Shown: positions 2,272 to 52,348 of the stretch, piece by piece | How the letters are laid out: each line of letters begins with the position of its first letter | Position numbering within the stretch: position 1 is the first letter of the stretch | NCBI GenBank assembly: GCA_016192825.1 | Contig: JACPTK010000004.1 | Location: 2,905-66,904 of the forward strand | Length of the DNA stretch: 64,000 nt | Direction of reading: 5' to 3' | Source of the DNA: Betaproteobacteria bacterium | GTDB taxonomy: Bacteria; Pseudomonadota; Gammaproteobacteria; Burkholderiales; SG8-41 | The notes under the pieces: generated by a model | Database searches by the model: none | What the model saw: only the letters and a program-made list of their open reading frames with translations | Told to the model about the DNA's origin: nothing | Position numbers and translations under genes: made by a program

Positions 2272-2364
2272 AACTGTGGGTAGTGTAACGTGATTCGCAT
2301 CGCGCCCGCTGCGGCGCAATGCGATTTAATATAAAATGCGTTTTTAGCGACTTTGATTCGGCGC

Positions 2365-5300
2365 ATGTCGCAGATCCTGAGGCTCAAGGGACGCAACGCC
2401 CTTTCGGCCTTCCGCTCAAGCAGGCTCCTGCAGTCCACCACCGAAGCAGTTCCGCGGCTTTCAGGCATTCACGCCGGGTTCTGGCATTTCGTCGAGCTCG
2501 AGCGGGCGCTGACGGATGCCGAATCGGGACGACTCGAGCGCATCCTGACGTACGGTCCGGCGGGCTCGGCCGGCGAGACGCGCGGCGACCTCCTGCTGGT
2601 CGTTCCGCGTCCCGGGACCATTTCCCCGTGGTCGTCCAAGGCCACCGACATCGCCCGCCATTGCGGGCTCGAGAGGGTCAGGCGCATCGAGCGCGGCGCG
2701 GCCTATTTCATTTCAACGCGCGATGGCGCGGCGCTTTCCCCGGGTGAACGGGCGGCAATAGCGCCCCTGATCCATGATCGCATGACGGAAGCGGTCCTTT
2801 CCTCGTTCGAGGACGCCGCCCGTTTGTTCGAGCATTTCCCGCCCAGGCCGCTCGAGACGGTGGACGTTCTGGGCGGCGGCATAGCGGCGCTCGAGCGCGC
2901 CAACCGGGCGATGGGGCTCGCGCTGTCCCGGGACGAGGTCGAGTACCTCGCGGAGCAGTTCACCCGGATCGCCCGCAACCCGACCGATGTCGAGCTGATG
3001 ATGTTCGCGCAGGCCAACTCCGAGCATTGCCGGCACAAGATCTTCAATGCCGACTGGGTGATCGACGGCAGGCCGCAGACCGCATCCCTGTTCGGGATGA
3101 TCCGTACCACGCACGAAAGGAATCCCGCCGGCACGGTGGTCGCTTATGCCGACAACGCCGCGGTCATGGAGGGCGCGGGGATCGCGCGGTTCTATCCGCG
3201 CGACGGCGGCGAGTACCGCTACGCCGAGGAGCTCACGCACACGGTCATGAAGGTGGAGACGCACAATCATCCGACGGCGATCGCGCCTTTTCCGGGCGCG
3301 GCCACCGGTTCGGGCGGTGAAATCCGCGACGAGGGCGCGACGGGCCGCGGGGCCAAGCCCAAGGCCGGCCTGACGGGGTTCACGGTGTCTCACCTCCGGG
3401 TCCCGGGCTTCGAGCAGCCCTGGGAGCGCGATGACCCGGGGCGGCCGCGGCGCATCGCCTCGGCCCTGCAAATCATGCTCGAAGGCCCGGTCGGCGGCGC
3501 GTCCTTCAACAACGAATTCGGGCGGCCCAATCTGGCGGGTTATTTCCGCACCTTCGAGCAGCGCGTGGCGGGCGAAACGCGCGGCTATCACAAGCCGATC
3601 ATGATCGCCGGCGGCATCGGCAACCTGTCGGCGCGCCACGCGCGCAAGAGCGAGGTTGCGCCGGGCGCGGCGCTGATCCAGCTTGGCGGGCCCGGCATGC
3701 TGATCGGGCTCGGCGGGGGGGCGGCCTCCAGCATGGACACCGGCGCCAACCTGGAAGATCTCGATTTCGACTCGGTGCAGCGGGGCAATGCCGAAATTCA
3801 GCGCCGCGCGCAGGAGGTGATCGACCGCTGCTGGGCGCTGGGCGCCGGGAACCCGATCCTGTCGATACACGATGTCGGCGCCGGCGGGCTGTCGAATGCG
3901 CTGCCGGAACTGGTGCACTCGGCAAAGCGCGGCGGCCGTTTCGACCTGCGCAAGGTCCCGAGCGAGGAGCCGGGGATGTCGCCGCTGCAGATCTGGTGCA
4001 ACGAAGCGCAGGAGCGCTACGTGCTCGCGGTCGCGCCCGGGGGCCTCGACCGCTTCCGCGCGATCTGCGAGCGCGAGCGCTGCCCGTTTGCCGTGGTCGG
4101 GGAAGCGACGGGTGACGGGCAACTGGTCGTGAGCGACCCGGTGTTCAATAACCGGCCCGTGGACATGGAGCTTGCCGTCCTGCTCGGCAAGCCGCCGAAG
4201 ATGACGCGCGATGTGGCGCGCGCCCGGCGCGAACTGCCGCCGTTCGATACGACCCGCGTGGACCTGCGCGAGGCGGCGTACCGCGTGCTGCGGCTGCCGG
4301 CGGTCGCGGACAAGACCTTTCTCATCACCATCGGCGACCGCACCGTCGGCGGGCTCACCGCGCGCGACCAGATGGTCGGCCCGTGGCAGGTGCCGGTGGC
4401 GGACGCCGCGGTCACGCTGATGGGCTTCAATACGTTCCGCGGCGAGGCCTTTGCGATGGGGGAACGCACCCCGCTGGCGCTGGTCAGCCCGGAAGCATCG
4501 GGCCGCATGGCGGTCGGGGAGGCGATCACCAACATTGCTGCGGCGCCCGTTGCCCGCATCGGCGACATCAAGCTCTCCGCCAACTGGATGGCGGCGGCAG
4601 GCCACCCCGGCGAGGACGCCGCCCTGTTCGATACGGTGCGCGCCGTCGCGCTGGATTTCTGCCCGCAGCTGGGCGTCAGCATCCCGGTCGGCAAGGACAG
4701 CCTGTCCATGAAGACGGCGTGGGAGGAAAACGGCGCGAGGAGGGAAGTGACCGCGCCGCTGTCGCTGATCGTTTCCGCGTTCGCGCCGGTGGCCGACGTC
4801 CGCGGCACCGTCACGCCGCAGTTGCGGACCGATTGCGGTGACACCGTCCTCATGCTGATCGACCTGGGCGGCGGATTATGCCGAATGGGCGGCTCATCGC
4901 TCGCCCAGGTCTATAACGAGATCGGGCAGGTTGCGCCGGACGCGGATGCCGCGCGGCTGAAGGCGTTCTTCAGCGCGGCGCAGGGCCTCAACCGCGGCGG
5001 CAGGATGCTCGCCTATCACGACCGTTCGGACGGCGGCCTGTTCGCCACCGTATGCGAGATGATGTTCGCCGGTCGAATTGGAGTTTCACTCCAATTCGAC
5101 AATATGTCCCATGACAAGTCCCCGCTTGAATTTTTGTTCAACGAGGAGCTTGGCGCGGTCGTGCAGGTGCGCAAAGCCGACCTCGAAGCGGTACGCAGTG
5201 CTTTCGATACCGCCGGCCTTGGGCGCGATCTGCACGTCATCGGGACCCTCAATAGCGAAGACAGCCTGCGCGTGGCGGCGGACGGCAAGGAGATTCTCCG

Positions 5301-6258
5301 TGAAAAGCGCGGAGAGCTTCGCCGCGCCTGGTCGGAGACCACCTATCGCCTGCAGAAACTGCGCGACAACCCGGATTGCGCGCAGCAGGAATACGACCGC
5401 CTGCTCGATGCGGACGATCCGGGCCTAAACGCGCGGTTGACGTTCGATCCGGGCGAGGACATCGCGGCGCCATTTGTCAGCCGGGGCGCGCGCCCGCGCA
5501 TCGCGATCCTGCGCGAGCAGGGCGTGAACGGCCAGGTCGAGATGGCAGCGGCCTTCGACCGGGCGGGGTTTGCCGCGGTCGACGTTCACATGAGCGACAT
5601 CATTGCCGGACGCACGAGCCTGAGCGCCTTCAGGGGGTTCGCGGCATGCGGCGGGTTCTCCTATGGCGACGTGCTGGGGGCGGGGGAGGGATGGGCGAAA
5701 TCGATCCTGTTCAACGCCCGGGCGCGCGCCGAATTCGAGGCGTTTTTCGGGCGCGCGGACACGTTTGCCCTCGGCGTCTGCAACGGGTGCCAGATGATGA
5801 GCAATCTCCACGACCTCATCCCGGGCGCGGCGTCGTGGCCGCATTTCGTGCGCAACCGGTCGGAGCAGTTCGAGGCCCGCTTCGTGATGCTCGAGGTGCA
5901 ACGCTCGCCCTCGCTCTTCTTCGACGGCATGGCCGGCAGCCGCCTGCCAATCGCGGTCGCGCACGGCGAGGGCTATGCCGAGTTTACCGGCGACGCCGCA
6001 CGGAAAAACGCCGAGGCGCTGGTGACGGCGCGCTTCGTCGATCATCGCGGCGCGGTGACCGAGACCTACCCCTGCAACCCCAACGGCTCGCCGGGCGGCA
6101 TCACGGGTCTCACCACGCCCGACGGGCGCTTCACCATCCTGATGCCGCATCCCGAGCGCGTGTTCCGCGCGGTGCAGCATTCGTGGCATCCGGGCGGGTG
6201 GGGCGAGGACGGGCCGTGGCTGCGGCTGTTCAGGAATGCGAGGAAGTGGGTGGGGTAG
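2365..6258 (+). CDS. purL: Phosphoribosylformylglycinamidine synthase, single-chain large form
   Basis: About 1297 aa. It has the characteristic FGAM synthase blocks ([33 protein letters not shown]) and a C-terminal glutaminase domain ([14 protein letters not shown]). ATG 2365 is preferred over the TTG at 2353. Confidence 0.95.
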
Positions 6259-6267
6259 GATCTAACT

Positions 6268-6379
6268 GGATGAGGGATGAGGGATGAGGGATGAGGGATG
6301 AGGGATGAGGGATGAGGGATGCGGGATGAGGGATGAGGGATGCGGGATGAGGGATGAGGGATGAGGGATGAGGGATGAC
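6268..6379 (+). repeat. Tandem heptamer array (GGATGAG) x16
   Basis: Counted directly: 16 contiguous 7-nt units. Units 8 and 11 are GGATGCG and the last unit is GGATGAC. The array starts 10 nt after the purL stop. Confidence 0.97.
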
Positions 6380-6390
6380 CCCCTCCAGCA

Positions 6391-6425
6391 GAAACGGCGC
6401 ACCCAGGTGCGCCGTTTCTTATTTG
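6391..6425 (+). terminator. Rho-independent terminator of purL
   Basis: 12-bp perfect stem GAAACGGCGCAC / GTGCGCCGTTTC with a 4-nt loop, followed by a T-rich tail (CTTATTTG). Confidence 0.7.
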
Positions 6426-6466
6426 TGACGCGTCACCAGTCACGAGTCACCAGTCACCAGTCACGC
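6425..6466. repeat. Tandem heptamer array GTCACCA/GTCACGA (5 units) preceded by palindromic GTGACGC
   Basis: Units are GTCACCA, GTCACGA, GTCACCA, GTCACCA, GTCACGC at 6432-6466. The array abuts the stop codon of the minus-strand PPIase gene. Confidence 0.92.
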
Positions 6467-24063: not shown

Positions 24064-24113
24064 CACGGCTTGTGCAACAGCGAGCCGGCCACGTCCGAGA
24101 GGAGGATGAGGTC

Positions 24114-24986
24114 ATGACAGCAGCAACCAAGCCGGTAGTCCGGATCGCCCCCAACAACCAGGTATTCGACTTGCCGGTGATGGTCGGCATCGAGGAAGGG
24201 CTGTTCGAGCAGGCCGGGCTGGACGTGAGCTTCTCTGCGACCCACGCGGACCGCGAGCGGGACCGCGCGGAGAAACCGATCCTGTCGCGGCTCAAGGAGC
24301 AGCTGTTCGAGTGCGGGTCGGCCGACAGCTACAACGTTTGCGAGTGGGCGAGCATCGACCGGCTGGAGCGCGGCAAGCGCGGCGGCAACATCGCGGCCTT
24401 GCGCGCAGCAGTCGCGGCGCAGGCGATTCTCACCTTCGATGACGCGCTGCAGACGCCGCGCGACATGGCGGATGTCCCGGTCGTGGTGCAGGAGCTTACC
24501 GGGTCGCACTACACGACGTTGCAGATGCTCGAAAGCGCCGTGGGCAGCGACCATGTCAAGATCGTGCACGGCGGCCTGCCGCAGATGCGCTGGGCGGGAT
24601 TGAAGAACGGCACCGCCCGCGCGGTGACGGTGATGGAGCCGTTCATCAGCCTCGGCCTCAAGGAGGGCGCGCACATCATCGCCTCTTCGTTCTATCGTGG
24701 CGGGGAAGTCGTGGCGGCCGAGCTGACGCCCGGGCAACGCAAGGCCTATTACGACGCCGAGAACCGGGCGGTGGATCTCATCAACGCCGATTTCTACAAG
24801 TACGCGCATCACGTGACGGCGCATGCCAAGGGCGCCTTGGAGCCGAACGAACTGCTGCGGGCATTCGTCCGCTACAAGCACGTCGATTACTACGATCCGG
24901 AGCTGTTCAACCGGGCCTACGACTGGATGCGGGCGCGGGGGATGACCGAAGGCCAGAGCCAGCACGCCGCGCTGGTGGCGGGCTGA
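24114..24986 (+). CDS. NMT1/THI5-like (periplasmic-binding-protein fold) protein without signal peptide
   Basis: About 290 aa from ATG 24114, with GAGAGGAGGA 7 nt upstream. The assignment is a weak fold-level call from overall pattern only. Confidence 0.5.
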   Translation: MTAATKPVVRIAPNNQVFDLPVMVGIEEGLFEQAGLDVSFSATHADRERDRAEKPILSRLKEQLFECGSADSYNVCEWASIDRLERGKRGGNIAALRAAVAAQAILTFDDALQTPRDMADVPVVVQELTGSHYTTLQMLESAVGSDHVKIVHGGLPQMRWAGLKNGTARAVTVMEPFISLGLKEGAHIIASSFYRGGEVVAAELTPGQRKAYYDAENRAVDLINADFYKYAHHVTAHAKGALEPNELLRAFVRYKHVDYYDPELFNRAYDWMRARGMTEGQSQHAALVAG

Positions 24987-25016: not shown

Positions 25017-26120
25017 CTATAGGGGCTTCTGCAGGTCGGCGATCACGGCGTTCAGGAAGCGTCCCGCCTCGCCGCCCGTCACCACGCGATGGTCGAAGGT
25101 GAGCGAGAGCGGCAGCATGCGGTGTATCGCGGGCCTGTCGTCCGCCACCACGACGCGCTTTTCGATGCGTCCGGCGCCGAGGATGGCAACGGTAGGCGGC
25201 AGCACCAGCGGCGAGGCGTAGCGTCCGGCGATCGAGCCGTAGTTGGACAGCGTGATGGTGTTCGCGCGCAGCTCCTCCGGCGGGACTTTCCTGGCGCGGG
25301 CGTCGACGATAAGTCTTTTCAGCGCGTCCCCGAGGTCGGCCTCGTCGCGCTCGCCGCAATTGCGCAGCACCGGCACCAGCAGTCCGTCCGGTGTGTCCAC
25401 GGCGATGCCGATGTCGATTTTCTTCAGGATCCAGCGGCCGATCTTCTCGCTGTCGTACCAGGCGTTGAGGGCGGGCTCGGCGCGACAGCCCGCGACGAGC
25501 GCGCGGATCAGCCGCAGCATGGTGGGCGCATCCGGGCCCCAGGACTCGATGTCGGCATCGTCCATGATCGTGGCGGAGGCGACTTCGGCGGTCGCGAGCT
25601 CCATGTTCTGCGCCATGGTCCGGCGCACGCCGCGGATCAGCTCGATCGGCCCGATCTCGGAGAGGATGCGCGCCGCGCGCTGCACGTCGCTTGCGGTGAT
25701 GAGCCCGTCGGCCCCGGTCGGCGTGACCATCGCGAGATCCACGTTGAGCCGGCGCGCAAGCGCGCGTACCGCCGGGGTGGCCTTGATGCCGCCGGTGGCG
25801 GGAGCCGGGGCGGCCGGCGCGTCCGCAACAACCTTCTTCCCGACCTCGACGACGCCGACGACGGTCCCGGTATCCGGTGCGTCGCTCTCGCCCTCGAAGG
25901 CGACCAGGGGCGCGCCGATGTGGGCGATGTCGCCGGGATTGCCGTAGAGCCTGGCGATCCTGCCGGCGTAAGGGGCGGGAATGTCCACCACCGCCTTGGC
26001 GGTCTCGACCGACACGATGGGCGTGTCGGCTTTCACCTCGTCGCCGATCTTGACGTGCCACTTGACGATCTCGGCCTCCTGCAGCCCTTCGCCGAGGTCC
26101 GGCAGCTTGAAAATTTTCAT
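25017..26120 (-). CDS. Dihydrolipoamide acyltransferase (E2) of a 2-oxoacid dehydrogenase complex
   Basis: 367 aa with one lipoyl domain (VSVETAKAVVDIPAP), a subunit-binding domain (ATPAVRALARRLNVDL) and a catalytic DHRVVTG. Confidence 0.9.
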   Translation of the reverse strand: MKIFKLPDLGEGLQEAEIVKWHVKIGDEVKADTPIVSVETAKAVVDIPAPYAGRIARLYGNPGDIAHIGAPLVAFEGESDAPDTGTVVGVVEVGKKVVADAPAAPAPATGGIKATPAVRALARRLNVDLAMVTPTGADGLITASDVQRAARILSEIGPIELIRGVRRTMAQNMELATAEVASATIMDDADIESWGPDAPTMLRLIRALVAGCRAEPALNAWYDSEKIGRWILKKIDIGIAVDTPDGLLVPVLRNCGERDEADLGDALKRLIVDARARKVPPEELRANTITLSNYGSIAGRYASPLVLPPTVAILGAGRIEKRVVVADDRPAIHRMLPLSLTFDHRVVTGGEAGRFLNAVIADLQKPL

Positions 26121-26254
26121 TGCATGAAAATCTTAATGAAGATTCGATAGGATGCCCGATTAAAGAATGGACGGCCTGAGCATTTTCGCGCTGAAGGGCG
26201 CGATGTGGTTCGCAACCGTGCTGTCGTCAAAATAGCCACGATCGAAGTCCATTC

Positions 26255-27235
26255 TTAGGCGAAGGCGAGCGTCTTCTTCACCGCCGCCACGATCTGCGCC
26301 TTGCCCGGCTGGTAGTGATGCTCCAGGCGCGGCAGCGGCACCACCACGTCATAACCGGTCACCCGCTGCACCGGGGCGAGCAGGTTGAGCAGGGCCTCTT
26401 CCGCCAGTCGCGCGGCAATCTCCGAGGCAAAGCTGCAGGTGCGGGGCGCTTCCGTGGCCACGATGCAGCGGCCGGTCTTGGCGACGGAGCCCAGTATCGT
26501 CTCCATGTCGAGCGGCTTGAGAGTTGCAACGTCGATCACCTCGGCGGCGACGCCCTGCTCGGCGAGCTCGTCCGCGGCGGCGAGCGCTTCCGGAATCATG
26601 CCGCCCCAGCCGACGAGCGTCACGTCGGAGCCCTCGCGCAGCGTGAAGCAGGCATCGAGCGCCATCGCTTCGCCGCTGTCGGCGACCTCTTCCTTGAACA
26701 GGCGGTAGAGCCGCGTCGGCTCGAGAAAAACAACCGGGTCGGGGTCGCGGATCGCGGCGAGCAGCAGGCCATAGGCGCGGCGGGGCGAGGAGGGGTACAC
26801 CACGCGGATGCCCGGGATATGGGCGTACATCGCTTCGGGACTTTCCGAGTGGTGCTCGGGCGCGTGAATGCCGGCGCCGCACGGCATTCTCAGCACCATC
26901 GGGCAGGAGAGCCGGCCCTGGGTGCGATGGCGCATGCGCCCGGCGTGGTTGAGGATCTGGTCGATCGTGGTGTAGGCGAAGCCGGAGAACTGGATTTCGG
27001 CCACCGGCTTCAAGCCCTCCACCGACATGCCGATTGCCATGCCGGCGATCAGCGCTTCGGCAAGCGGGGTGTCGATCACGCGCTCGGGCCCGAAGCGCTC
27101 GGTGAGCCCCAGCGTCGCGCGGAATACGCCGCCGTCCACGCCGACATCCTCGCCCAGGACGACCACGCCGGGGTCGCGCTCCATCTCGCCCTTCAGCGCG
27201 AGGTTGATGGCTTCAACGAGGGTGATTTGCGCCAT
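26255..27235 (-). CDS. 2-oxoacid dehydrogenase E1 component beta subunit
   Basis: 326 aa with typical transketolase-like E1beta blocks (VVVLGEDVG..GGVFR, RVIDTPLAE, PCGAGIHAPEHHS). Confidence 0.92.
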   Translation of the reverse strand: MAQITLVEAINLALKGEMERDPGVVVLGEDVGVDGGVFRATLGLTERFGPERVIDTPLAEALIAGMAIGMSVEGLKPVAEIQFSGFAYTTIDQILNHAGRMRHRTQGRLSCPMVLRMPCGAGIHAPEHHSESPEAMYAHIPGIRVVYPSSPRRAYGLLLAAIRDPDPVVFLEPTRLYRLFKEEVADSGEAMALDACFTLREGSDVTLVGWGGMIPEALAAADELAEQGVAAEVIDVATLKPLDMETILGSVAKTGRCIVATEAPRTCSFASEIAARLAEEALLNLLAPVQRVTGYDVVVPLPRLEHHYQPGKAQIVAAVKKTLAFA

Positions 27236-27244
27236 CTGCGATCA

Positions 27245-27275
27245 GGTAATGGGTAATGGGTAATGAGTAATGAGC
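27245..27275 (+). repeat. Heptamer array GGTAATG x3, AGTAATG, AGCATCA (left arm of an inverted pair)
   Basis: Read directly. The reverse-complement array lies at 27663-27690. Confidence 0.92.
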
Positions 27276-27287
27276 ATCAAAACCCGG

Positions 27288-27665
27288 TTAGGACCGGACT
27301 GCCTTGTGAAGCCCCGTTACCAATCTGGAGACTTGATTTACAACATTGAAAATTGGATCGTTGCTATTGATGTAGCCCAGATCACTGGCGATAAGCAACT
27401 GTGTCTCCAGTTCGCTCAGCGAGCCTCGTGCCACGTTCAAGAACTGAGCGAACTCCCTGTTTCCTGTGCGCGCGGCACCCTCTGCAATATTGCTGGGAAT
27501 TGAGACTGCGGCGCGACGCATCTGCGAGACCAATCCAAACATCTCTTCCCTGGGAAATTTCTGTGTTAGTAAATAGACGTCCTTGACCAAAGCTCTGGAT
27601 ACCTTCCAGGCCTCCAGCTTGTGGTGGCCCCTTCCAGCACTTTCTGGTTGTCGTTCAGCGCCCAT
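27288..27665 (-). CDS. Four-helix-bundle protein (23S rRNA intervening-sequence protein / S23p family, Avd-like)
   Basis: About 125 aa. Family signature: ..KLEAWK..L....Y.LT..FP..E.FGL.SQMRRAAVSIPSNIAEG..R....EF.QFL..A.GSL.ELETQL. G+C is visibly lower than in the neighbouring genes. The gene is bracketed by inverted heptamer arrays. Confidence 0.9.
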   Translation of the reverse strand: MGAERQPESAGRGHHKLEAWKVSRALVKDVYLLTQKFPREEMFGLVSQMRRAAVSIPSNIAEGAARTGNREFAQFLNVARGSLSELETQLLIASDLGYINSNDPIFNVVNQVSRLVTGLHKAVRS

Positions 27666-27690
27666 CACTCATTACCCATTACTCATTACC
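27663..27690 (+). repeat. Heptamer array CATCACT, CATTACC, CATTACT, CATTACC (right arm, reverse complement of GGTAATG)
   Basis: Read directly. It contains the start of the four-helix-bundle gene and the last codons plus the stop of E1alpha. Confidence 0.92.
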
Positions 27691-28743
27691 CAGTGCAGCG
27701 GCCCGCTGGCGCGCGAGTGCTGCGGGCAACTGCGCGTAGAGATGGTCGAACATCTGCGCTGCGGCCGGAGGCGGCGTGTCGAGGTAGGCCTGCGCCGCGG
27801 CCTGCACCTGCGCGTTGCATTCCCTGAGCAGCGCGTCCTCCTTCGACTTGTCCCAGGCGCCGGATTCCATGAGGTGGGCGCGCAGCCGCACAAGGGGCTC
27901 GAGCTTCCATGCTTCCGCCAACTCGTCCGGGCTGCGGTAGCGCGAGGCGTCGTCGGCCGTGGTGTGGTCGGCGAGCCGGTAGGCAAGGGCCTCGATCAGC
28001 GTGGGGCCGCCGCCGGCGCGGGCTTTCGCGAGCGCCTGCTCCATGGCGTGGCGCACGGCGATGACATCGTTGCCGTCCACCTGCAGGCCTTCGATGCCGG
28101 CGGCGATGGCCTTCTGGGCGAGCGTGTGCGCCGCGGTCTGCTTCGCCCGCGGCACCGAGATCGCCCACTGATTGTTGGCGACGACGAAGACGAGGGGCAG
28201 CTTCCAGACGCCGGCGGCATTGAGACCCTCGTAGAAATCGCCCTTGGAGGTTGCGCCGTCGCCCAGCGCGCACACCGCCACGCGCGGCTCCCGCCGCAGC
28301 TTCATGGCGTAGGCGACTCCGACCGCGTGTGTTGCGTGCGCGGCGATGGTGATGCAAACAGGGAAGTCCCGGCGAGGGCCGGCATAATCGCTTCCGCGTT
28401 CGTCCCCGCCCCAATAGAGAAACAGCTCCTTGAGCGTCACGCCGCGCATCAGCTGCGCGCCGTTCTCGCGGTAGGTCACGAGCAGGACATCGTCCCTCGC
28501 CATCGCGGAACCGACCCCGGCTTCGATCGCCTCGTTGCCGAGCATCGAGGCGAAAGTACCGAGCTGTCCGGTGCGCTGCAGCGCGATCGCCTTGGCGTCA
28601 TAGGCGCGCATCAGCGCCATCCAGCGGTAGAGGGAGACGAGTATCCGGGGATCATGCGCGAAGCCCGGCAGGGCCTGCAGCGCCTTGCCGTGGGGATCGA
28701 GGAACTGTAAGTACCGGACCTCGAATTTGGCGGTGATATTCAA
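27679..28743 (-). CDS. 2-oxoacid dehydrogenase E1 component alpha subunit (TPP-dependent)
   Basis: 354 aa with a TPP motif region (GDGATSKGDFYEGLNAAGVWKLPLVFVVANNQWAIS). The C-terminal ..GNE-stop is encoded by the heptamer array. Confidence 0.9.
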   Translation of the reverse strand: MNITAKFEVRYLQFLDPHGKALQALPGFAHDPRILVSLYRWMALMRAYDAKAIALQRTGQLGTFASMLGNEAIEAGVGSAMARDDVLLVTYRENGAQLMRGVTLKELFLYWGGDERGSDYAGPRRDFPVCITIAAHATHAVGVAYAMKLRREPRVAVCALGDGATSKGDFYEGLNAAGVWKLPLVFVVANNQWAISVPRAKQTAAHTLAQKAIAAGIEGLQVDGNDVIAVRHAMEQALAKARAGGGPTLIEALAYRLADHTTADDASRYRSPDELAEAWKLEPLVRLRAHLMESGAWDKSKEDALLRECNAQVQAAAQAYLDTPPPAAAQMFDHLYAQLPAALARQRAAALGNE

Positions 28744-28891
28744 GCCGGGCCCCCGGAAGTGACCATTGGCCGAATTCTACCTTCCCGGCCCGCATTCCTG
28801 CTGCCCGGTTACGCGGACGAGGGGCGGCAGCGATGCCGCGCGGCTTTGTGGGACAATGCCCGCCATCAATTCACGCATTTCAGGGTCGGAA

Positions 28892-29995
28892 ATGAATCTC
28901 GGTTTCTTCACGATGCCGATGCACCCGCCGGGGCGAAACTATACGCAGACGCTCCGGGAGGATCGCGAGGCGGTGCTGCTGGCGGACCGTCTGGGATATT
29001 GCGAGGCCTTCATCGGCGAGCACATCACCGATGTGTGCGAGACCATCCCGTCGTGCCTGACGTTTATCGCGAGCGTCGCCCACGACACCCGGCAGATCCG
29101 GCTCGGCAGCGGCACCGTCAACCTGCCCAACAACCACCCGGTCCAGGTGGCCGCGCACGTTGCGATGGTGGATCACATGCTGGAGGGGCGTTTCATTTTC
29201 GGCATCGGACCGGGCGGGCTGCGCTCCGACATGGAGGTGTGCGGAAACCTGGACGCCGATCGCAACGCGATGTTCGTCGAATGCATCGACCAGATCCTCG
29301 CGATCTGGGCGGGCGATGCGCCGTACAACCTGAAGGGACGCTACTGGAACATCTCCACCGAGCGCACGCTCATCCGCGAGGCGGGACAGGGCGTGATCCT
29401 GAAGCCGTTCCAGAAGCCGCATCCCCCCATCGTGGTGACCGTCATCGCACCGCACTCGAAGGGGCTGGTCGCGGCGGCGCAGCGCGGCTGGCGACCGATT
29501 TCCGCCAATTTCCTGCAACCCCGTTGGGCGGCGACGCACTGGCCCATGTATCGGCAGGGTCGCGAGCTTGCCGGTCAACGCGCCGATCCACGGGATTGGC
29601 GCGTTTGCAAGAGCATCTTCGTGGCCGACGACGACGTCGCCGCGCGCCGTTACGCTACAAGCGCGGACGGGCCGTACGGATTCTATTACTGGAACCTGCT
29701 GACCAAGCGCAGGGGCCATGGCAACGTGGACATCTTCAAGCACGATCTGGGCGTTCCGGACGCCGCGGTGACCGTGGACTACCTGCTCGACCGGCTGGTG
29801 ATCTGCGGCGGCGTCGCGAGCGTGGTGGACCAGCTGCTCGCGTTCCGCGAAACGGTGGGGGATTTCGGCACGCTGCTCTACTGCGGCCACGACTGGGCCG
29901 ATCCGAAGCTCGCGCGCCGCTCGATGGAGCTGATGGCGGAGAAGGTGATGCCCGCAGTCAACGCGGCGCTTGGCCCTGCGTCATGCGCCGCTTGA
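28892..29995 (+). CDS. Luciferase-like (LLM class) flavin-dependent monooxygenase
   Basis: About 367 aa from ATG 28892 (MNLGFFTMPMHPPGR..). It shows an LLM pattern (IGEH.., LGSGTVNLPNNHP). The track ORF starts earlier, at 28766. Confidence 0.82.
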   Translation: MNLGFFTMPMHPPGRNYTQTLREDREAVLLADRLGYCEAFIGEHITDVCETIPSCLTFIASVAHDTRQIRLGSGTVNLPNNHPVQVAAHVAMVDHMLEGRFIFGIGPGGLRSDMEVCGNLDADRNAMFVECIDQILAIWAGDAPYNLKGRYWNISTERTLIREAGQGVILKPFQKPHPPIVVTVIAPHSKGLVAAAQRGWRPISANFLQPRWAATHWPMYRQGRELAGQRADPRDWRVCKSIFVADDDVAARRYATSADGPYGFYYWNLLTKRRGHGNVDIFKHDLGVPDAAVTVDYLLDRLVICGGVASVVDQLLAFRETVGDFGTLLYCGHDWADPKLARRSMELMAEKVMPAVNAALGPASCAA

Positions 29996-30023
29996 GTGAT
30001 GAGAGATGAGTGACGGGTGACGG
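29993..30023 (+). repeat. Short heptamer array TGAGTGA, TGAGAGA, TGAGTGA, CGGGTGA
   Basis: Four units; the first TGA is the LLM gene stop codon. There is no clear inverted partner. Confidence 0.6.
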
Positions 30024-32809: not shown

Positions 32810-33349
32810 TCAGCTTCCTTTCTCCGGTCTGCGGTGCTGCTTGAATTCCGCGAATTTCCGGGTCTTGTAGGCGCCGCTCGCGACGAATTCGCCCAGCAGC
32901 AGGAATTCATCCGCCTCGCGGATCGTGCCGACGATGCGCACGACCTCGTTGCCGGCGAGATCGTGGAAAACGAGCGTGGGCGTGCCTTTGACTCTTGCCG
33001 ACTGCGCGTAGCTCTTCTCGGTGTGCCCGCGCCCGGCGAAATCGGTGAGCGGCACCGAGCTGTGAATGTCGATCGCGAAATTGAGGAAGCGGCTGCGATA
33101 GAACTTCTGCACCTCGGGGTGGCTGAGCACGTGGGTTTTCATGTGAATGCAGCCGGGACAGCCTTCCTGCTCGAACATGAGGAACACCGCTGTTTTCCCG
33201 GCGCTTTTCGCGTCGGCGAGCTCGTCCTTGAGGTCCCCGGTGTTGGGATTGAAGAAGTGGGTGTAGGGATCGCGGGCCTCCGCCGCAAGCGCAGGGGCGG
33301 CACCGAAGAGGCCGCACAGCATCAGGAGCAACGCGAGATTGCGAATCAT
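32810..33349 (-). CDS. Secreted thioredoxin-fold protein (CPGC motif)
   Basis: About 179 aa from ATG 33349. Sec-type signal peptide MIRNLALLLMLCGLFGAAPALA|AE and the redox motif EQEGCPGCIHM. The track start at 33370 lies inside the heptamer array. Confidence 0.7.
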   Translation of the reverse strand: MIRNLALLLMLCGLFGAAPALAAEARDPYTHFFNPNTGDLKDELADAKSAGKTAVFLMFEQEGCPGCIHMKTHVLSHPEVQKFYRSRFLNFAIDIHSSVPLTDFAGRGHTEKSYAQSARVKGTPTLVFHDLAGNEVVRIVGTIREADEFLLLGEFVASGAYKTRKFAEFKQHRRPEKGS

Positions 33350-33359
33350 CAGCCGCCTT

Positions 33360-33414
33360 TCACCAGTCACGAGTCACGAGTCACGAGTCACGAGTCACGA
33401 GTCACGAGTCACGA
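33360..33414. repeat. Tandem heptamer array: TCACCA + (GTCACGA) x7 perfect
   Basis: Counted directly: seven identical units at 33366-33414, between the prpD stop and the thioredoxin-fold gene start. Confidence 0.97.
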
Positions 33415-33420
33415 GCAGTA

Positions 33421-34863
33421 TCAGACCACGAACCGGTCCACGAATTCATTGACGGGCGTCGCTTCCAGGCGCTGCTGGTCATGGCACAGGGACAGTATCG
33501 CCTGCTGCTGCTTGGGCGCGAAACGCCGCGCGAGATGGGTGCGGAACTTGGCTTCGAGCAGCGGCACGCCTTCCTTGCGACGGCGGCGGTGGCCGACGGG
33601 GTATTCGACGGCGACCGGGTCCGTCTTCGAGCCGTCGTTGAAGAATATCTGCACAGCGTTGGCGATCGAGCGCTTGGCCGGGTCCATATAGTCCCGGCTC
33701 CAGCGCTTGTTTTCCACGCACACCATCCGCGGCCGCAACCGGTCGATTCGGGGATCGGCCGCCGCGCCATCCTCGTAATCGGAGGCCGCGAGCGTGCCCT
33801 TCATGAGCCCGATGGCGACCATGTACTGCAGGCAGTGGTCGCGGTCCGCCGGGTTGTGAAGGGGGCCCTTCTTGTCGATGATGCGGATGGCGGATTCGTG
33901 GGTCGTGATGACGATTTTCTTCACCGCATCGAGGCGGTCACGGACTTGCGGGTGCAGCTGGATCGCGGCTTCGACGGCGGTCTGGGCGTGAAACTCGGCG
34001 GGAAAGGAAATCTTGAACAGCACATTTTCCATGACGTAGGAGCCGAACGGCCGCTTGAAGCGGAACGGCCTGCCCCCGAACAGCACGTCGTAGAAGCCCC
34101 AGGTCTTCGCGGTAAGGGCGGAGGGGTAGCCCATCTCGCCCTTCAACGCGAACAGCGCCAGCCGGACCGCGCGGCTGGTGGCATCGCCCGCCGCCCACGA
34201 TTTGCGCGACCCGGTGTTGGGCGCGTGGCGGTAGGCGCGCAGGGACTGCCCGTCGATCCACGCGTTGGAGACCGCGTTGACGATTTCCTCGCGGGTGCCG
34301 CCCATCATGTGGGTGACGACGGCGGCGGAGGCGACCTTGACCAGCACCACGTGATCCAGCCCGACGCGGTTGAAGCTGTTTTCGAGCGCGATCACGCCCT
34401 GGATTTCGTGCGCCTTGATCATCGCGGTGAGCACGTCGCGCATCACCGGCGGCTTCGCGCCCCGGGAGAGGCGCGTGCGCGCCAGCCAGTCGGCGGTGGC
34501 AAGGATGCCACCCAGGTTGTCGGACGGATGGCCCCACTCGGCGGCGAGCCAGGCGTCGTTGAAATCGAGCCAGCGGACCATCGTGCCGAGGTTGAAGGCC
34601 GCCGTCACGGGGTCGAGCTGGTACGGCGTGCCCGGCACCTTCGCGCCGTCGGGCACCACGGTGCCCGCGACGATGGGACCGAGCAGCTTGGTGCACGCCG
34701 GGTACTCAAGCGCTTCCAGCCCGCAGCCCAGCGTGTCCATCAGGCACAGCCGCGCCGTGTTGTAGGCTTCATCGCTCTTGATCGGGAATCCGGCGACGTA
34801 CTCGGCGATGTCCGTCAGAACTTTATCTGGTTTCGGACGGGTATTGGAGATGCGGGAGCTCAT
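33421..34863 (-). CDS. prpD: 2-methylcitrate dehydratase
   Basis: 480 aa with the MmgE/PrpD family pattern ([11 protein letters not shown].., [13 protein letters not shown]) and adjacency to prpC. Confidence 0.9.
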
Positions 34864-36100: not shown

Positions 36101-36124
36101 GGGCGAAAGCAGCGGCAGACGCGG

Positions 36125-36166
36125 GTCACCAGTCACCAGTCACCAGTCACGAGTCACGAGTCACGG
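36125..36166. repeat. Tandem heptamer array (GTCACCA) x3 (GTCACGA) x2 GTCACGG
   Basis: Six contiguous units between the mdh stop and the prpC start. Confidence 0.96.
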
Positions 36167-36172
36167 TATTAA

Positions 36173-39899: not shown

Positions 39900-39901
39900 C
39901 G

Positions 39902-40008
39902 GTGAATCGTGATTGGTGATTAGTGAGCGGACCAAACCGAAGAGCGACGCATGATGGACTTCCGTCTTCCCGCTTGTCACCAATCACTAAACACCACTCA
40001 CTAATCAC
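39902..40008. repeat. Inverted pair of heptamer arrays in the sdhA|sdhB spacer (GTGAATC GTGATTG GTGATTA GTGAGCG ... TTGTCAC CAATCAC TAAACAC CACTCAC TAATCAC)
   Basis: Left arm 39902-39929 and right arm 39974-40008. There is a 12-nt perfect complement: GTGATTAGTGAG (39916-39927) with CTCACTAATCAC (39997-40008). Confidence 0.9.
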
Positions 40009-41188: not shown

Positions 41189-42487
41189 ATGGCAGAGAAA
41201 CTGGCAACCCTGAGCTTCAGTGACGGCACGCCGTCGGTCGATTTCCCCGTGCTGGGCGGCAGCGAAGGCCCGGAAGTGATCGACGTGCGGGCACTCTACG
41301 GCAAGACCGGCAAGTTCACCTACGACCCCGGCTTCATGTCCACGGCCAGCTGCCGCTCCACCATCACCTATATCGACGGCGACAAGGGGATACTGCAATA
41401 CCGCGGCTACCCGATCGAGCAGATCGCCGAGCATTGCACGTTCCTCGAGGTGGCCTACCTGATCCTCAACGGCGAGCTGCCGAACAAGAAGCAGCTCGAG
41501 GAATTCGTGACTACCGTCACCCACCACACCATGGTGCACGAGCAGCTCGGGCGCTTTTACTCGGGTTTCCGGCGCGACGCGCACCCGATGGCGGTGCTGT
41601 GCGGGGTGGTGGGCGCCCTGTCCGCCTTCTACCACGACTCGATCGATATTCACGACGAGCGCAGCCGGGAGATCGCGGCGTTCCGGCTGATCGCGAAGCT
41701 GCCGACCATCACGGCGATGACCTACAAATACAGCGCCGGACAGCCGTTCATGTACCCGAAGAACGCGCTGTCCTACGTGGACAACTTCCTCTACATGATG
41801 TTCGGCACGCCGTGCGAGGAGTACAAGCCCAACCGGACCCTGTCGCGGGCGATGGACCGCATCCTGATCCTTCACGCCGACCACGAGCAGAACGCGTCGA
41901 CCTCCACGGTGCGGCTCGCCGGCTCGACCGGCGCCAACCCGTTCGCGTGCATCTCCGCCGGCATCGCGAGCCTGTGGGGCCCGGCCCACGGCGGCGCCAA
42001 CGAGGCGGTGCTCAAGATGCTCGGCGAAATCGGCGACGTGAAGAACATTCCCGCGTTCATCAAGCGCGTCAAGGACAAGGACGGCCACGCCATGCTGATG
42101 GGCTTCGGCCACCGCGTCTACAAGAACTACGACCCGCGCGCCAAGCTCATCCAGAAGACCTGCCACGAGGTGCTGGAGGAGCTCGACCTCAAGGACGACA
42201 AGCTGTTCAAGCTCGCGATCGCGCTGGAGAAGGTGGCGCTCGAGGACGAGTACTTCGTCAAGCGCAAGCTCTATCCCAACGTGGATTTCTATTCCGGCAT
42301 CGTCTACAAGGCGCTCGGCATTCCGGTCGCGATGTTCACCGCGATATTCGCGCTCGCCCGCACGGTGGGTTGGATCGCCCAGTGGAAGGAGCTGATCAGC
42401 GACCCGGATCAGAAGATCGGGCGCCCGCGGCAGCTCTTCACGGGCGCGGCGCGCCGCGACTTCGTGCCCATGAACAAGCGAAAGTGA
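41189..42487 (+). CDS. gltA: Citrate synthase (type II, hexameric type)
   Basis: 432 aa from ATG 41189 ([13 protein letters not shown]..). Motifs: [30 protein letters not shown]. The track ORF starts earlier, at 41063. Confidence 0.95.
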
Positions 42488-42571
42488 TTCGTGAGTCGTG
42501 AATCGTGATTCGAGGGCGTATCGTGTGCGGACCATAGCGGGCCGAATCACGAATCACCCATCACGATTCAC
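42484..42571. repeat. Inverted pair of heptamer arrays in the gltA|sucA spacer (GTGATTC GTGAGTC GTGAATC GTGATTC ... GAATCAC GAATCAC CCATCAC GATTCAC)
   Basis: Left arm 42484-42511, whose first unit contains the gltA TGA. Right arm 42544-42571. The centre is 32 nt. Confidence 0.92.
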
Positions 42572-42596
42572 GCTCTTGGGTTTCTGAGGCGCAGCC

Positions 42597-46887: not shown

Positions 46888-46893
46888 AAGGGC

Positions 46894-46978
46894 GTGAATG
46901 GTGAGTGGTGAGTGGTGAATGGCAGAAACGGCCGGTTTCCGGGTTCAGCCCAATCACTACTCACCAATCACTATTCAC
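46894..46978. repeat. Inverted pair of heptamer arrays in the sucB|lpdA spacer (GTGAATG GTGAGTG GTGAGTG GTGAATG ... CAATCAC TACTCAC CAATCAC TATTCAC)
   Basis: Left arm 46894-46921 and right arm 46951-46978. The centre is 29 nt and contains a small GAAAC..GTTTC stem. Confidence 0.92.
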
Positions 46979-50867: not shown

Positions 50868-50950
50868 CAGCTTCCAGCTTCCAGCAACCAGCAGTCAGCC
50901 GAAACCGCAAACTGGAAGCTCTAAGCTGGCAGCTCGTAGCTGATAGCTGC
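50868..50950. repeat. Inverted pair of heptamer arrays with unit CAGCTTC (CAGCTTC x2, CAGCAAC, CAGCAGT, CAGCCGA ... GGAAGCT CTAAGCT GGCAGCT CGTAGCT GATAGCT)
   Basis: Left arm 50868-50902 and right arm 50914-50948, between convergent genes. Confidence 0.85.
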
Positions 50951-52308: not shown

Positions 52309-52320
52309 ATGTTGAAAGGC

Positions 52321-52348
52321 GTGACTGGTGACTGGTGATTGGTGGATT
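52321..52348 (+). repeat. Heptamer array GTGACTG x2, GTGATTG, GTGGATT
   Basis: Four units. It is the reverse-orientation, phase-shifted relative of the GTCACCA arrays. Confidence 0.8.

Follow-up and report, generated by a model that had tools for sequence, protein, structure and literature searches.

The stretch of DNA analysed here (the window) comprises 64,000 nucleotides (nt) of a betaproteobacterial contig and carries, on its minus strand, a pyruvate dehydrogenase (PDH)-type 2-oxoacid dehydrogenase operon with the gene order E1alpha, 4HB, E1beta and E2, where 4HB denotes a gene for a small four-helix-bundle protein of the S23p family (Table 1). An earlier note on this DNA, made from the sequence alone, had described a 443-nt insert splitting E1alpha from E1beta, and the coordinates bear this out: the two genes are separated by 443 nt on the minus strand (27236-27678), within which a 4HB open reading frame (ORF, 27665..27288) encodes 125 amino acids (aa), or 126 aa when counted from a GTG at 27668, in line with the cargo gene of roughly 125 codons that had been reported. 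The insert is also AT-richer than its surroundings, as had been noticed, with a GC content of 0.47-0.535 compared to 0.62-0.72 in the flanks. Simple scans of the insert revealed no promoter-like or terminator-like sites, leaving the 4HB gene without a promoter of its own, and no Shine-Dalgarno-like sequence is visible in the linker TGATCGCAG (27236-27244) that precedes the E1beta ATG. Rfam returned no known RNA family in 26000-29000 at E <= 1.

Table 1. Features of the E1alpha-E1beta locus, followed by the "empty" inverted pairs of heptamer arrays elsewhere in the window (TRF, Tandem Repeats Finder).
Feature	Position	Strand	Basis
E1alpha gene	27679..28743	-	PF00676 (E1_dh) 259 bits; TIGR03181 (pyruvate dehydrogenase E1 alpha type) 455 bits, equivalog cut-off 411
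E1alpha last four codons and stop	27690-27679	-	within 5' heptamer array
5' arm, sense GGTAATG AGTAATG GGTAATG AGTGATG GGC	27660..27692	-	sequence, TRF, inverted-repeat comparison
Stop-start relay	27665..27681	-	sequence read directly
4HB gene, PF05635 / TIGR02436 / 23S_rRNA_IVP (S23p), 125 aa	27288..27665	-	profile search
3' arm, sense GCTCATTACT CATTACC CATTACC CATTACC	27245..27275	-	sequence, TRF, inverted-repeat comparison
9-nt linker TGATCGCAG, 3' arm to E1beta ATG	27236..27244	-	sequence
E1beta gene	26255..27235	-	PF02779 and PF02780 (Transket_pyr/Transketolase_C)
E2 acyltransferase gene, operon shared with E1alpha/E1beta	25017..26120	-	PF00198, PF00364, PF02817 (2-oxoacid_dh/lipoyl/E3-binding)
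"Empty" inverted pair, GTGAnnn, intercistronic, just past stop to just before ATG	39901..40008	+	TRF; -40.3 kcal/mol
"Empty" inverted pair, GTGATTC / GAATCAC, between two plus-strand genes	42484..42572	+	TRF; -44.6 kcal/mol
"Empty" inverted pair, GTGAATG/GTGAGTG and complement, stop codon to next ATG	46893..46978	+	TRF; -55.7 kcal/mol
"Empty" inverted pair between convergent genes	50868-50942		TRF

Both arrays that bracket the 4HB gene were recovered by TRF as period-7 repeats (27245-27272 and 27661-27692), and the arms that contain them (27245-27275 and 27660-27692) match over 31 nt at 90% complementarity and lie 384 nt apart, in agreement with the earlier description of two mutually reverse-complementary arrays. 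The arm-arm duplex has a predicted energy of -49.9 kcal/mol, and the minimum-free-energy fold of the minus-strand RNA 27225-27710, a check that the earlier note had proposed, pairs both arrays with z = -5.0. The pattern GGTAATGRGTAATG, with up to two mismatches allowed, has 7 matches in the window against 0.06 expected, six of the seven falling in the two arrays, and none of 100 shuffles (0/100) reached 7 matches. In a mirror test the in-register arm identity was 0.88 compared to 0.72 at shifts of 7 or 14 nt, a difference that is suggestive in strength because the register was set by the alignment.

The coding content of the arms is strongly polar. The 5' arm is G-rich and carries TAA/TGA in all three frames together with three ATGs; the 3' arm, which is complementary to it, is C-rich and has zero stop codons and zero ATGs. 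Read directly, the 5' array provides the ATG of 4HB as well as the end of E1alpha (GGT AAT GAG TAA, G-N-E-stop), as had been claimed. Specifically, the E1alpha TAA (27681-27679) overlaps an ATG as TAATG, this ATG opens a mini-ORF (ATG GGT AAT GAG TGA, 27679-27665), and the TGA of the mini-ORF overlaps the 4HB ATG as TGATG (27665-27663). In relatives, the first 4HB codons (M-G-N, ATGGGTAATG) are themselves units of the array.

The S23p family was first noticed as ORFs within intervening sequences (IVS) of 23S rRNA, and membership of the cargo in this family, as originally proposed, is supported by profile scores far above the cut-offs for both PF05635 (124.9 bits, cut-off 33.8) and TIGR02436 (117.8 bits, cut-off 24). 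Among solved structures, the nearest is that of XCC0516 from Xanthomonas campestris (PDB 2GSC, E = 1.2e-31, residues 7-119). A GxxRxxxSxxxNxxE motif is reported for XCC0516 homologues in the form in which it is quoted in PMC3936711; the window protein contains the RxxxSxxxNxxE portion as R51, S55, N59 and E62 (...RRAAVSIPSNIAEG...), with the leading G off the quoted spacing. In an alignment of 26 sequences, S55, N59 and E62 never vary and R51 is kept in at least 90%. The ratio of nonsynonymous to synonymous substitution (dN/dS) was 0.07-0.13 against the four homologues with measurable dS (74-98% identical), and the 4HB protein is under purifying selection. An exact-protein look-up found the 125-aa protein on record as P0001, from a betaproteobacterial metagenome-assembled genome, and gave no record for the 126-aa GTG-start version. 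A role in anti-phage defence was considered for 4HB and rejected, as no family among the PADLOC defence models matched it at E <= 0.01.

The history of the junction was examined in 80 metagenomic loci with an E1beta 66-89% identical, in 76 of which the spacer could be measured. At 57 of the 76 junctions the genes abut or overlap (spacer of +6 to -23 nt, hence <=6 nt), which agrees with the statement in the earlier note that these two genes normally do so, and abutment is the ancestral state, because every relative below ~76% identity has abutting or overlapping E1alpha and E1beta. Empty sites, for which the earlier note had suggested a search, also occur close by: among the 39 closer relatives 22 junctions are empty, for example L093 (where ...GGTGATGAGTGA is followed by ATG), L087 and L104. 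A further 15 of the 76 junctions hold spacers of 72-221 nt with tandem-repeat arms and without a 4HB gene, the arms being mostly GTGAnnn heptamers opposite nnnTCAC heptamers, with some other periods and sequences. One junction (L112) holds a full cassette, and its 4HB is 76% identical. Junction hairpins with a period of 8, 9, 10 or 14 or with unrelated arms (CACAGAGAT, ACAGGATTA) were seen in L083, L092, L103/L105/L117, L114 and L096; the E1alpha-E1beta junction has been filled repeatedly by differing repeat-armed hairpins.

Additional filled junctions came from the exact-protein look-up, in which P0005 (86% identical) lies at the E1alpha-E1beta junction in a 439-nt spacer in five assemblies and P0002 (98% identical) lies likewise at this junction. 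The earlier note had reasoned that relatives carrying the gene at the junction without flanking arrays would speak against a cassette; all of the junction cassettes (L112, L162, L164-L171) retain GGTAATG/AGTGATG-type arms, with unit numbers that vary (e.g., five units in the 3' arm of L162 versus four in the window). The native E1alpha end, GGT GAT GAG TGA (G-D-E-stop), when set beside GGT AAT GAG TAA in the window, shows that the array has overwritten the end of the gene. Since this native end (GGTGATGAGTGA) itself resembles two heptamer units, the left insertion border is blurred. Comparison of filled with empty junctions gave no target-site duplication, and the cassette contains no transposase and lacks the uniform terminal inverted repeats typical of miniature inverted-repeat transposable elements, its arm sequences differing between elements of one genome. 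In cassettes with identical 4HB and context (L182 versus L183, 2884-2946; L172 versus L175 versus L180) the 3' arm differs by 7 or 14 nt, that is by one or two whole heptamers, which shows slippage directly.

Two sets of contigs depart from this pattern. A 98%-identical cassette in two independent assemblies (L161, 2380-2460, and L163, 1-80) has a 5' array of ~1.5 units, upstream of which E1alpha is replaced by unrelated sequence with a ~23-nt direct repeat (GTCCAACTAACGCTGAAACTC); the shortened array and the replaced gene together place a rearrangement breakpoint inside the array. In L168 (853 nt, the whole contig) the sequence past the 3' array runs into the reverse complement of the E1alpha 3' end, a fold-back best explained as a misassembly that the inverted arrays provoked.

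Beyond this operon, a one-genome-per-species scan with the 26-homologue alignment resulted in 596 confirmed loci; counts on 77-80 loci below refer to the best 80 of these, drawn from Beta- and Gammaproteobacteria, Acidobacteriota, Planctomycetota, Bacteroidota, Nitrospirota, Firmicutes, Melainabacteria, Verrucomicrobiota, Xanthomonas and others. When 160 nt on either side of the ORF were compared (inverted-repeat score of at least 30), inverted arms were found in 49 of 77 loci versus 8 of 77 for the direct-orientation control (50/80 versus 8/80 in an ungapped version), and also in 17 of 25 IMG/VR viral contigs, an independent set. These arms are nearly always tandem heptamers, and the heptamers are lineage-specific (GTGAGGA, CGTGAAA, CAGTTCT, GGTTTTC, TAGTGGT, GGCGACG and more), with no universal motif across phyla beyond the G-richness and C-poverty of the 5' arm. 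Close to the ORF (150 nt or less from either end) there are 1.56 period-7 arrays per kb, compared to 0.096 per kb elsewhere in the loci, an enrichment of ~16-fold; periods 5, 6 and 9-11 are not enriched near the ORF, and period 8 contributes few near-ORF arrays (3 vs 1). The layout is tight, with a median arm of 32 nt and median gaps of 14 nt from the end of the 5' arm to the start codon and 11 nt from the stop codon to the 3' arm.

The polarity seen in the window is likewise general. In 44 of 48 loci G exceeds C in the 5' arm (p = 1.5e-9). The 5' arms hold 155 stop codons and the 3' arms 69, every frame is stopped in 26 of 49 5' arms versus 7 of 49 3' arms, and the ATG counts are 26 and 4. 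As each 7-nt unit shifts the frame by one, three stop-bearing units in a row cover the three frames. Furthermore, the G-rich 5' units often resemble Shine-Dalgarno sequences, as in GTGAGGA.

With regard to genomic context, an Rfam check placed none of the 80 genome loci (0/80) in an rRNA gene. In most loci the 4HB gene lies instead in sense orientation between co-directional genes, as in E1alpha-4HB-E1beta, TctC-4HB-alpha/beta-hydrolase and rmlB-4HB-rmlA (two lineages), and a crude strand assignment of the neighbouring genes across the 80 loci gave ++ in 47 cases, +- in 10, -+ in 8 and -- in 4. These results lead to the conclusion that operon junctions are the norm for this 4HB subfamily and that the rRNA IVS is a special case which happened to be noticed first. 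Within related Betaproteobacteria, closely related 4HB genes with GGTAATG-type arms sit at different operon junctions (the window, L172 and L182). In L005 (1372-1448) and L007 (1398-1486) an S-adenosylhomocysteine (SAH) riboswitch is followed by an ORF of 472 to 491 aa, presumably ahcY, and then directly by the 4HB cassette, which is thus found within a riboswitch-controlled operon as well. The proposal that a stem-bounded S23p cassette had colonised an mRNA spacer therefore holds for the protein family, the stem and the intercistronic site; such a site is not a rare colonisation, however, but normal for the subfamily, with none of the 80 loci in rRNA and most of them between co-directional genes. 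Two or more same-strand 4HB homologues or fragments were observed per 6-kb locus in L012, L020 and L053; in these loci, several consecutive junctions in a row of genes may all have been filled.

The survey also bears on base composition. In 75 of 78 loci the ORF has a lower GC content than the sequence around it. The difference is ~6-10 points whatever the GC of the host, and ORF GC correlates with host GC at r = 0.93. As the ORF tracks its host with a family-wide offset, AT-richness is a property of the family and the gene is adapted to each host. Low GC as a sign of recent import was rejected for the same reason.

Besides its single 4HB gene with the two arms, the window contains at least 10 further period-7 arrays, which are intergenic with one exception and usually begin within a few bases of a stop codon. 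The heptamer arrays of the window are not exclusive to the cassette, which corrects the earlier reading. Four intergenic inverted pairs enclose no gene (Table 1); these have loops of 20-60 nt and folds of -30 to -56 kcal/mol. Per kb, the window has 0.109 period-7 arrays, compared to 0.081 for close relatives, 0.005 for distant ones and 0.0008 for shuffled sequence. Across the 80 loci, arrays more than 150 nt from 4HB have the same heptamer as its arms, with at most 1 mismatch, in 55% of comparisons within a locus versus 4.6% between loci, and the heptamer families are genome-specific and common to cassette arms and other intergenic arrays. In Xanthomonas campestris, GGGAATC arrays number 186, most with four units, and include 70 inverted pairs, their function being "still to be elucidated" (PMC4692102), and the 4HB gene of X. 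vasicola (L028) has GGGAATC-type flanking arms.

Several individual arrays were recorded alongside these. A 16-unit GGATGAG array begins 7 nt past the stop of a 1301-aa plus-strand ORF (2353-6258) and opens a repeat region (6266-6466) that continues with a terminator-like hairpin (~6384-6420) and a GTCACCA/GTCACGA array (6432-6466); the latter reads GTGACnn on the minus strand and lies just past the apparent end of a convergent gene. Eight TCACGAG units (33359-33417; GTGACTC on the transcribed minus strand) make up the whole spacer between the minus-strand genes 33421-34863 and 32810-33370, as a single array without an inverted partner. Other solitary GTGAnnn-type arrays (29993-30013, 36122-36167 and 52320-52345) occur at gene ends or 5' regions and are G-rich on the transcribed strand. 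At rmlB-rmlA in L192 (2384-2500) and L193 (1856-1989), an "empty" GGTGATT/TGGTAAC hairpin immediately precedes a 4HB cassette whose arms are of this heptamer type.

We hold, with moderate confidence, that the insert in this PDH-type operon is a representative of a widespread, promoterless and polar cassette that would be transcribed with its host operon, form a stem, serve as a substrate for RNase III and spread among operon junctions. The cassette consists, in sense orientation, of a G-rich heptamer array, the 4HB/S23p gene and the complementary C-rich array, and fits exactly from the E1alpha stop to the E1beta start; it would be transcribed within the operon mRNA. Its 5' arm would terminate the upstream ORF in any frame, ribosomes would probably be handed to the 4HB start via the TAATG and then the TGATG coupling, and the arms would pair into a stem of ~31 bp. 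By analogy with the rRNA IVS, this stem could be cut by RNase III, with the 4HB segment released and the E1alpha and E1beta messages separated. In vitro, RNase III cleaves the 28-bp stem of GACAGAT heptamers in the Coxiella IVS, and the ends were located by rapid amplification of cDNA ends (PMC4990558). The cassette, including its arms, would spread among operon junctions, and the most likely route of movement is recombination or template switching at pre-existing heptamer arrays, which are common in intergenic sites. Overall, what the earlier reader observed is confirmed and the cassette reading is supported and generalised, while the suggested RNase III processing is plausible by analogy.

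A number of results weigh against this interpretation. Approximately one third of the surveyed loci are without detectable arms, and the strand assignment of neighbouring genes uses a crude ORF heuristic, based on GC at third codon positions, that mis-called genes around 46893 in the window. Neither a target-site duplication nor a recombinase is evident at the locus, and E1beta after the insertion is without a visible Shine-Dalgarno sequence and uncoupled from E1alpha, which bears on balanced E1 expression. The argument for RNase III cleavage of the stem is one of analogy with the rRNA IVS. Additionally, in 49 cassettes the G.U-compatible mismatches numbered 41 on the sense strand and 46 on the antisense strand (p = 0.67), and transversions exceed transitions among the arm mismatches. 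Given that there is no sense-strand G.U excess, complementarity could be kept by DNA-level copying and not by selection on RNA, and such copying, e.g., template switching in a hairpin, may indeed be what maintains the arms. The absence of wobble bias also favours an element that acts at the DNA level only, with the arrays as cruciforms, G-quadruplexes, protein-binding sites (e.g., IHF/HU-type sites of "global regulators") or hot spots of slippage and template switching and the RNA stem as incidental. The shifts of unit number by slippage and the breakpoint inside the 5' array of L161/L163 fit such an element as well, and there are precedents in the literature: the paired tandem heptamers between consecutive genes of Geobacter metallireducens were read by annotators as regulator sites (PMC2700814), and G-quadruplex formation has been proposed by Rehm et al. 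We nevertheless consider a purely DNA-level element unlikely. A strand-symmetric site is not expected to show such strong 5'-arm polarity with respect to the ORF and to operon transcription as is seen in 44 of 48 loci, the arrays adjoin stop and start codons, GGTAATG units have no G-tracts suited to a quadruplex, and the stem of the homologous rRNA IVS is cut as RNA.

The remaining alternatives concern the protein. Repetitive extragenic palindromes (REP), their REPIN hairpins and the REP-associated tyrosine transposase (RAYT) provide the model for one of them, in which 4HB would bind heptamer arrays in trans, protect them or assist their propagation, and in which the "empty" inverted pairs would be non-autonomous copies or landing pads. 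This arrangement, which is compatible with the polar cassette, is consistent with the sharing of heptamers between arms and distant arrays within loci, with the presence of one cassette and at least 10 other arrays in the window, with the graded array densities, with the tandem of empty hairpin and cassette in L192/L193, and with the fact that Xanthomonas, the source of the XCC0516 structure, has the GGGAATC arrays that also arm the L028 gene. Moreover, 4-5 is the usual number of units in an array, and the protein has been reported to be a homopentamer (Lin 2006, in the wording of a citing paper). We regard it as possible but doubtful, given that 4HB is a small helical bundle without a known catalytic motif, that the heptamers are diverse and the protein core is conserved, so that specific recognition would require co-evolution, and that shared heptamers could simply reflect a gene adopting local arrays. 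A dedicated accessory or regulatory subunit of the 2-oxoacid dehydrogenase operon, with the arrays as ordinary intercistronic hairpins, would account for the purifying selection and for retention of the gene at the junction in several relatives (76-98% protein identity). The distribution of 4HB brings this reading close to refuted and leaves it very improbable, as 75 of the 76 orthologous metagenome operons are without 4HB and close homologues occur in rml, TctC/hydrolase and SAH-riboswitch operons and, in the literature, in cas operons. Hardly credible at all is that 4HB is, or descends from, the accessory gene (Avd) of a diversity-generating retroelement (DGR). Avd shares the four-helix-bundle fold and distant sequence similarity with 4HB, seen as weak matches to PF22296 (bAvd, 20.2 bits) and NF033474 (DivGenRetAVD, 21.7 bits), but these scores are far under the respective cut-offs of 40 and 80 bits, and no recognisable reverse transcriptase, template or variable repeat was found among the neighbours within ~4 kb (E1alpha, E1beta, E2, a luciferase-like monooxygenase, aconitase, an HMGL-like gene and a 304-aa ORF at 24072-24986 without a Pfam match). 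A DGR at this locus was rejected on both grounds.

The polar operon cassette that we favour can be compared with several known systems. It shares with the 23S rRNA IVS of Leptospira, Coxiella burnetii, Xanthomonas and other bacteria the protein family PF05635 and a sense ORF in a loop closed by an inverted-repeat stem of ~30 bp, the terminal inverted repeats of the window cassette likewise giving a long stem that encloses the ORF. In Coxiella, the likeness extends to a 5' stem end of GACAGAT heptamers, the number of which varies between strains, and to a start codon beside the stem (PMC4990558). In contrast, the host transcript here is an mRNA, the insert lying between the coding genes for E1alpha and E1beta and not in helix 25 or 45 of a 23S rRNA gene; the arm overlaps and rewrites the end of a protein gene; the ORF is under purifying selection, whereas that of Coxiella is decaying; and cleavage by RNase III, for which the precedent is Coxiella, would apply to the window cassette by analogy. 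The window cassette works like an IVS but lies outside 23S rRNA, the defining location of that family. With REP/REPIN-RAYT systems it has in common one gene between inverted copies of a genome-dispersed, hairpin-forming and genome-specific repeat. The flanked gene here, whose only family matches are PF05635 and TIGR02436, encodes a small four-helix bundle where RAYT genes encode a Y1/HUH transposase; tandem heptamer arrays take the place of the single palindrome of REP; and any part of 4HB in moving the repeats would be hypothetical.

The arrays in turn resemble published intergenic heptamers (GGGAATC in Xanthomonas, GGGGAYT in Nostoc, the pairs of Geobacter metallireducens and the short tandemly repeated repetitive (STRR) sequences of cyanobacteria), which are intergenic arrays of ~4 units, often in convergent inverted pairs between consecutive genes, variable in length among close relatives and without an account of their function (PMC4692102, PMC2700814). 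Those arrays are not tied to PF05635, whereas here arrays enclose such a gene and are ~16-fold enriched around it; in full texts, a scope outside which most subscription journals lie, we found no link of non-rRNA PF05635 genes to flanking heptamer arrays. Lastly, the 23S_rRNA_IVP genes of cas operons also stand between co-directional genes, e.g., cmr3 and cmr2 in Pleurocapsa (PMC3936711). They have been read as linked to CRISPR-Cas, with arrays not described; the present data suggest instead that insertion of these genes into operons is promiscuous.

These comparisons allow a broader proposal, which we put forward tentatively: PF05635 4HB genes and genome-specific heptamer arrays may be two halves of one widespread and as yet unrecognised system, in which the polar cassette would be the complete unit that invades operon junctions, the rRNA IVS a special case, and the empty hairpins derivatives or landing pads. 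If true, this would account for the surplus of heptanucleotide repeats long noted in bacterial genomes, among them those of Xanthomonas, Nostoc, Geobacter and the present betaproteobacterium, and the "association" of 4HB with CRISPR-Cas, rml and other operons would be recast as promiscuous insertion. To our knowledge, the S23p/IVS protein family has gone 30 years without a known function, viewed through the special case of rRNA; the usual home of 4HB is at the junctions of ordinary operons, in a stereotyped polar cassette. For heptamer repeats, which in many bacterial genomes rank first among over-represented long simple repeats and whose role "remains to be elucidated" (PMC4692102), the ~16-fold enrichment of arrays and the genome-specific sharing of heptamers provide a concrete and testable candidate partner. 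An insert of ~440 nt with a 31-bp stem, in an operon that needs two subunits in matched amounts, is furthermore a natural experiment in mRNA processing and translational coupling. On the practical side, inverted arrays cause fold-back misassemblies (L168) and rearrangement breakpoints (L161), and cassettes of this kind can mislead the prediction of function through guilt by association.

Outside the cassette, the spacer between E1beta and E2 (26121-26254) is a second unusual intercistronic spacer in the operon, with a length of 134 nt and a GC content of ~0.51, and its ends form a 10-nt inverted repeat (AAGAATGGAC ... GTCCATTCTT) that is non-heptameric. The E2 start lies within a small palindrome (TTTTCATGCAATGAAAA).

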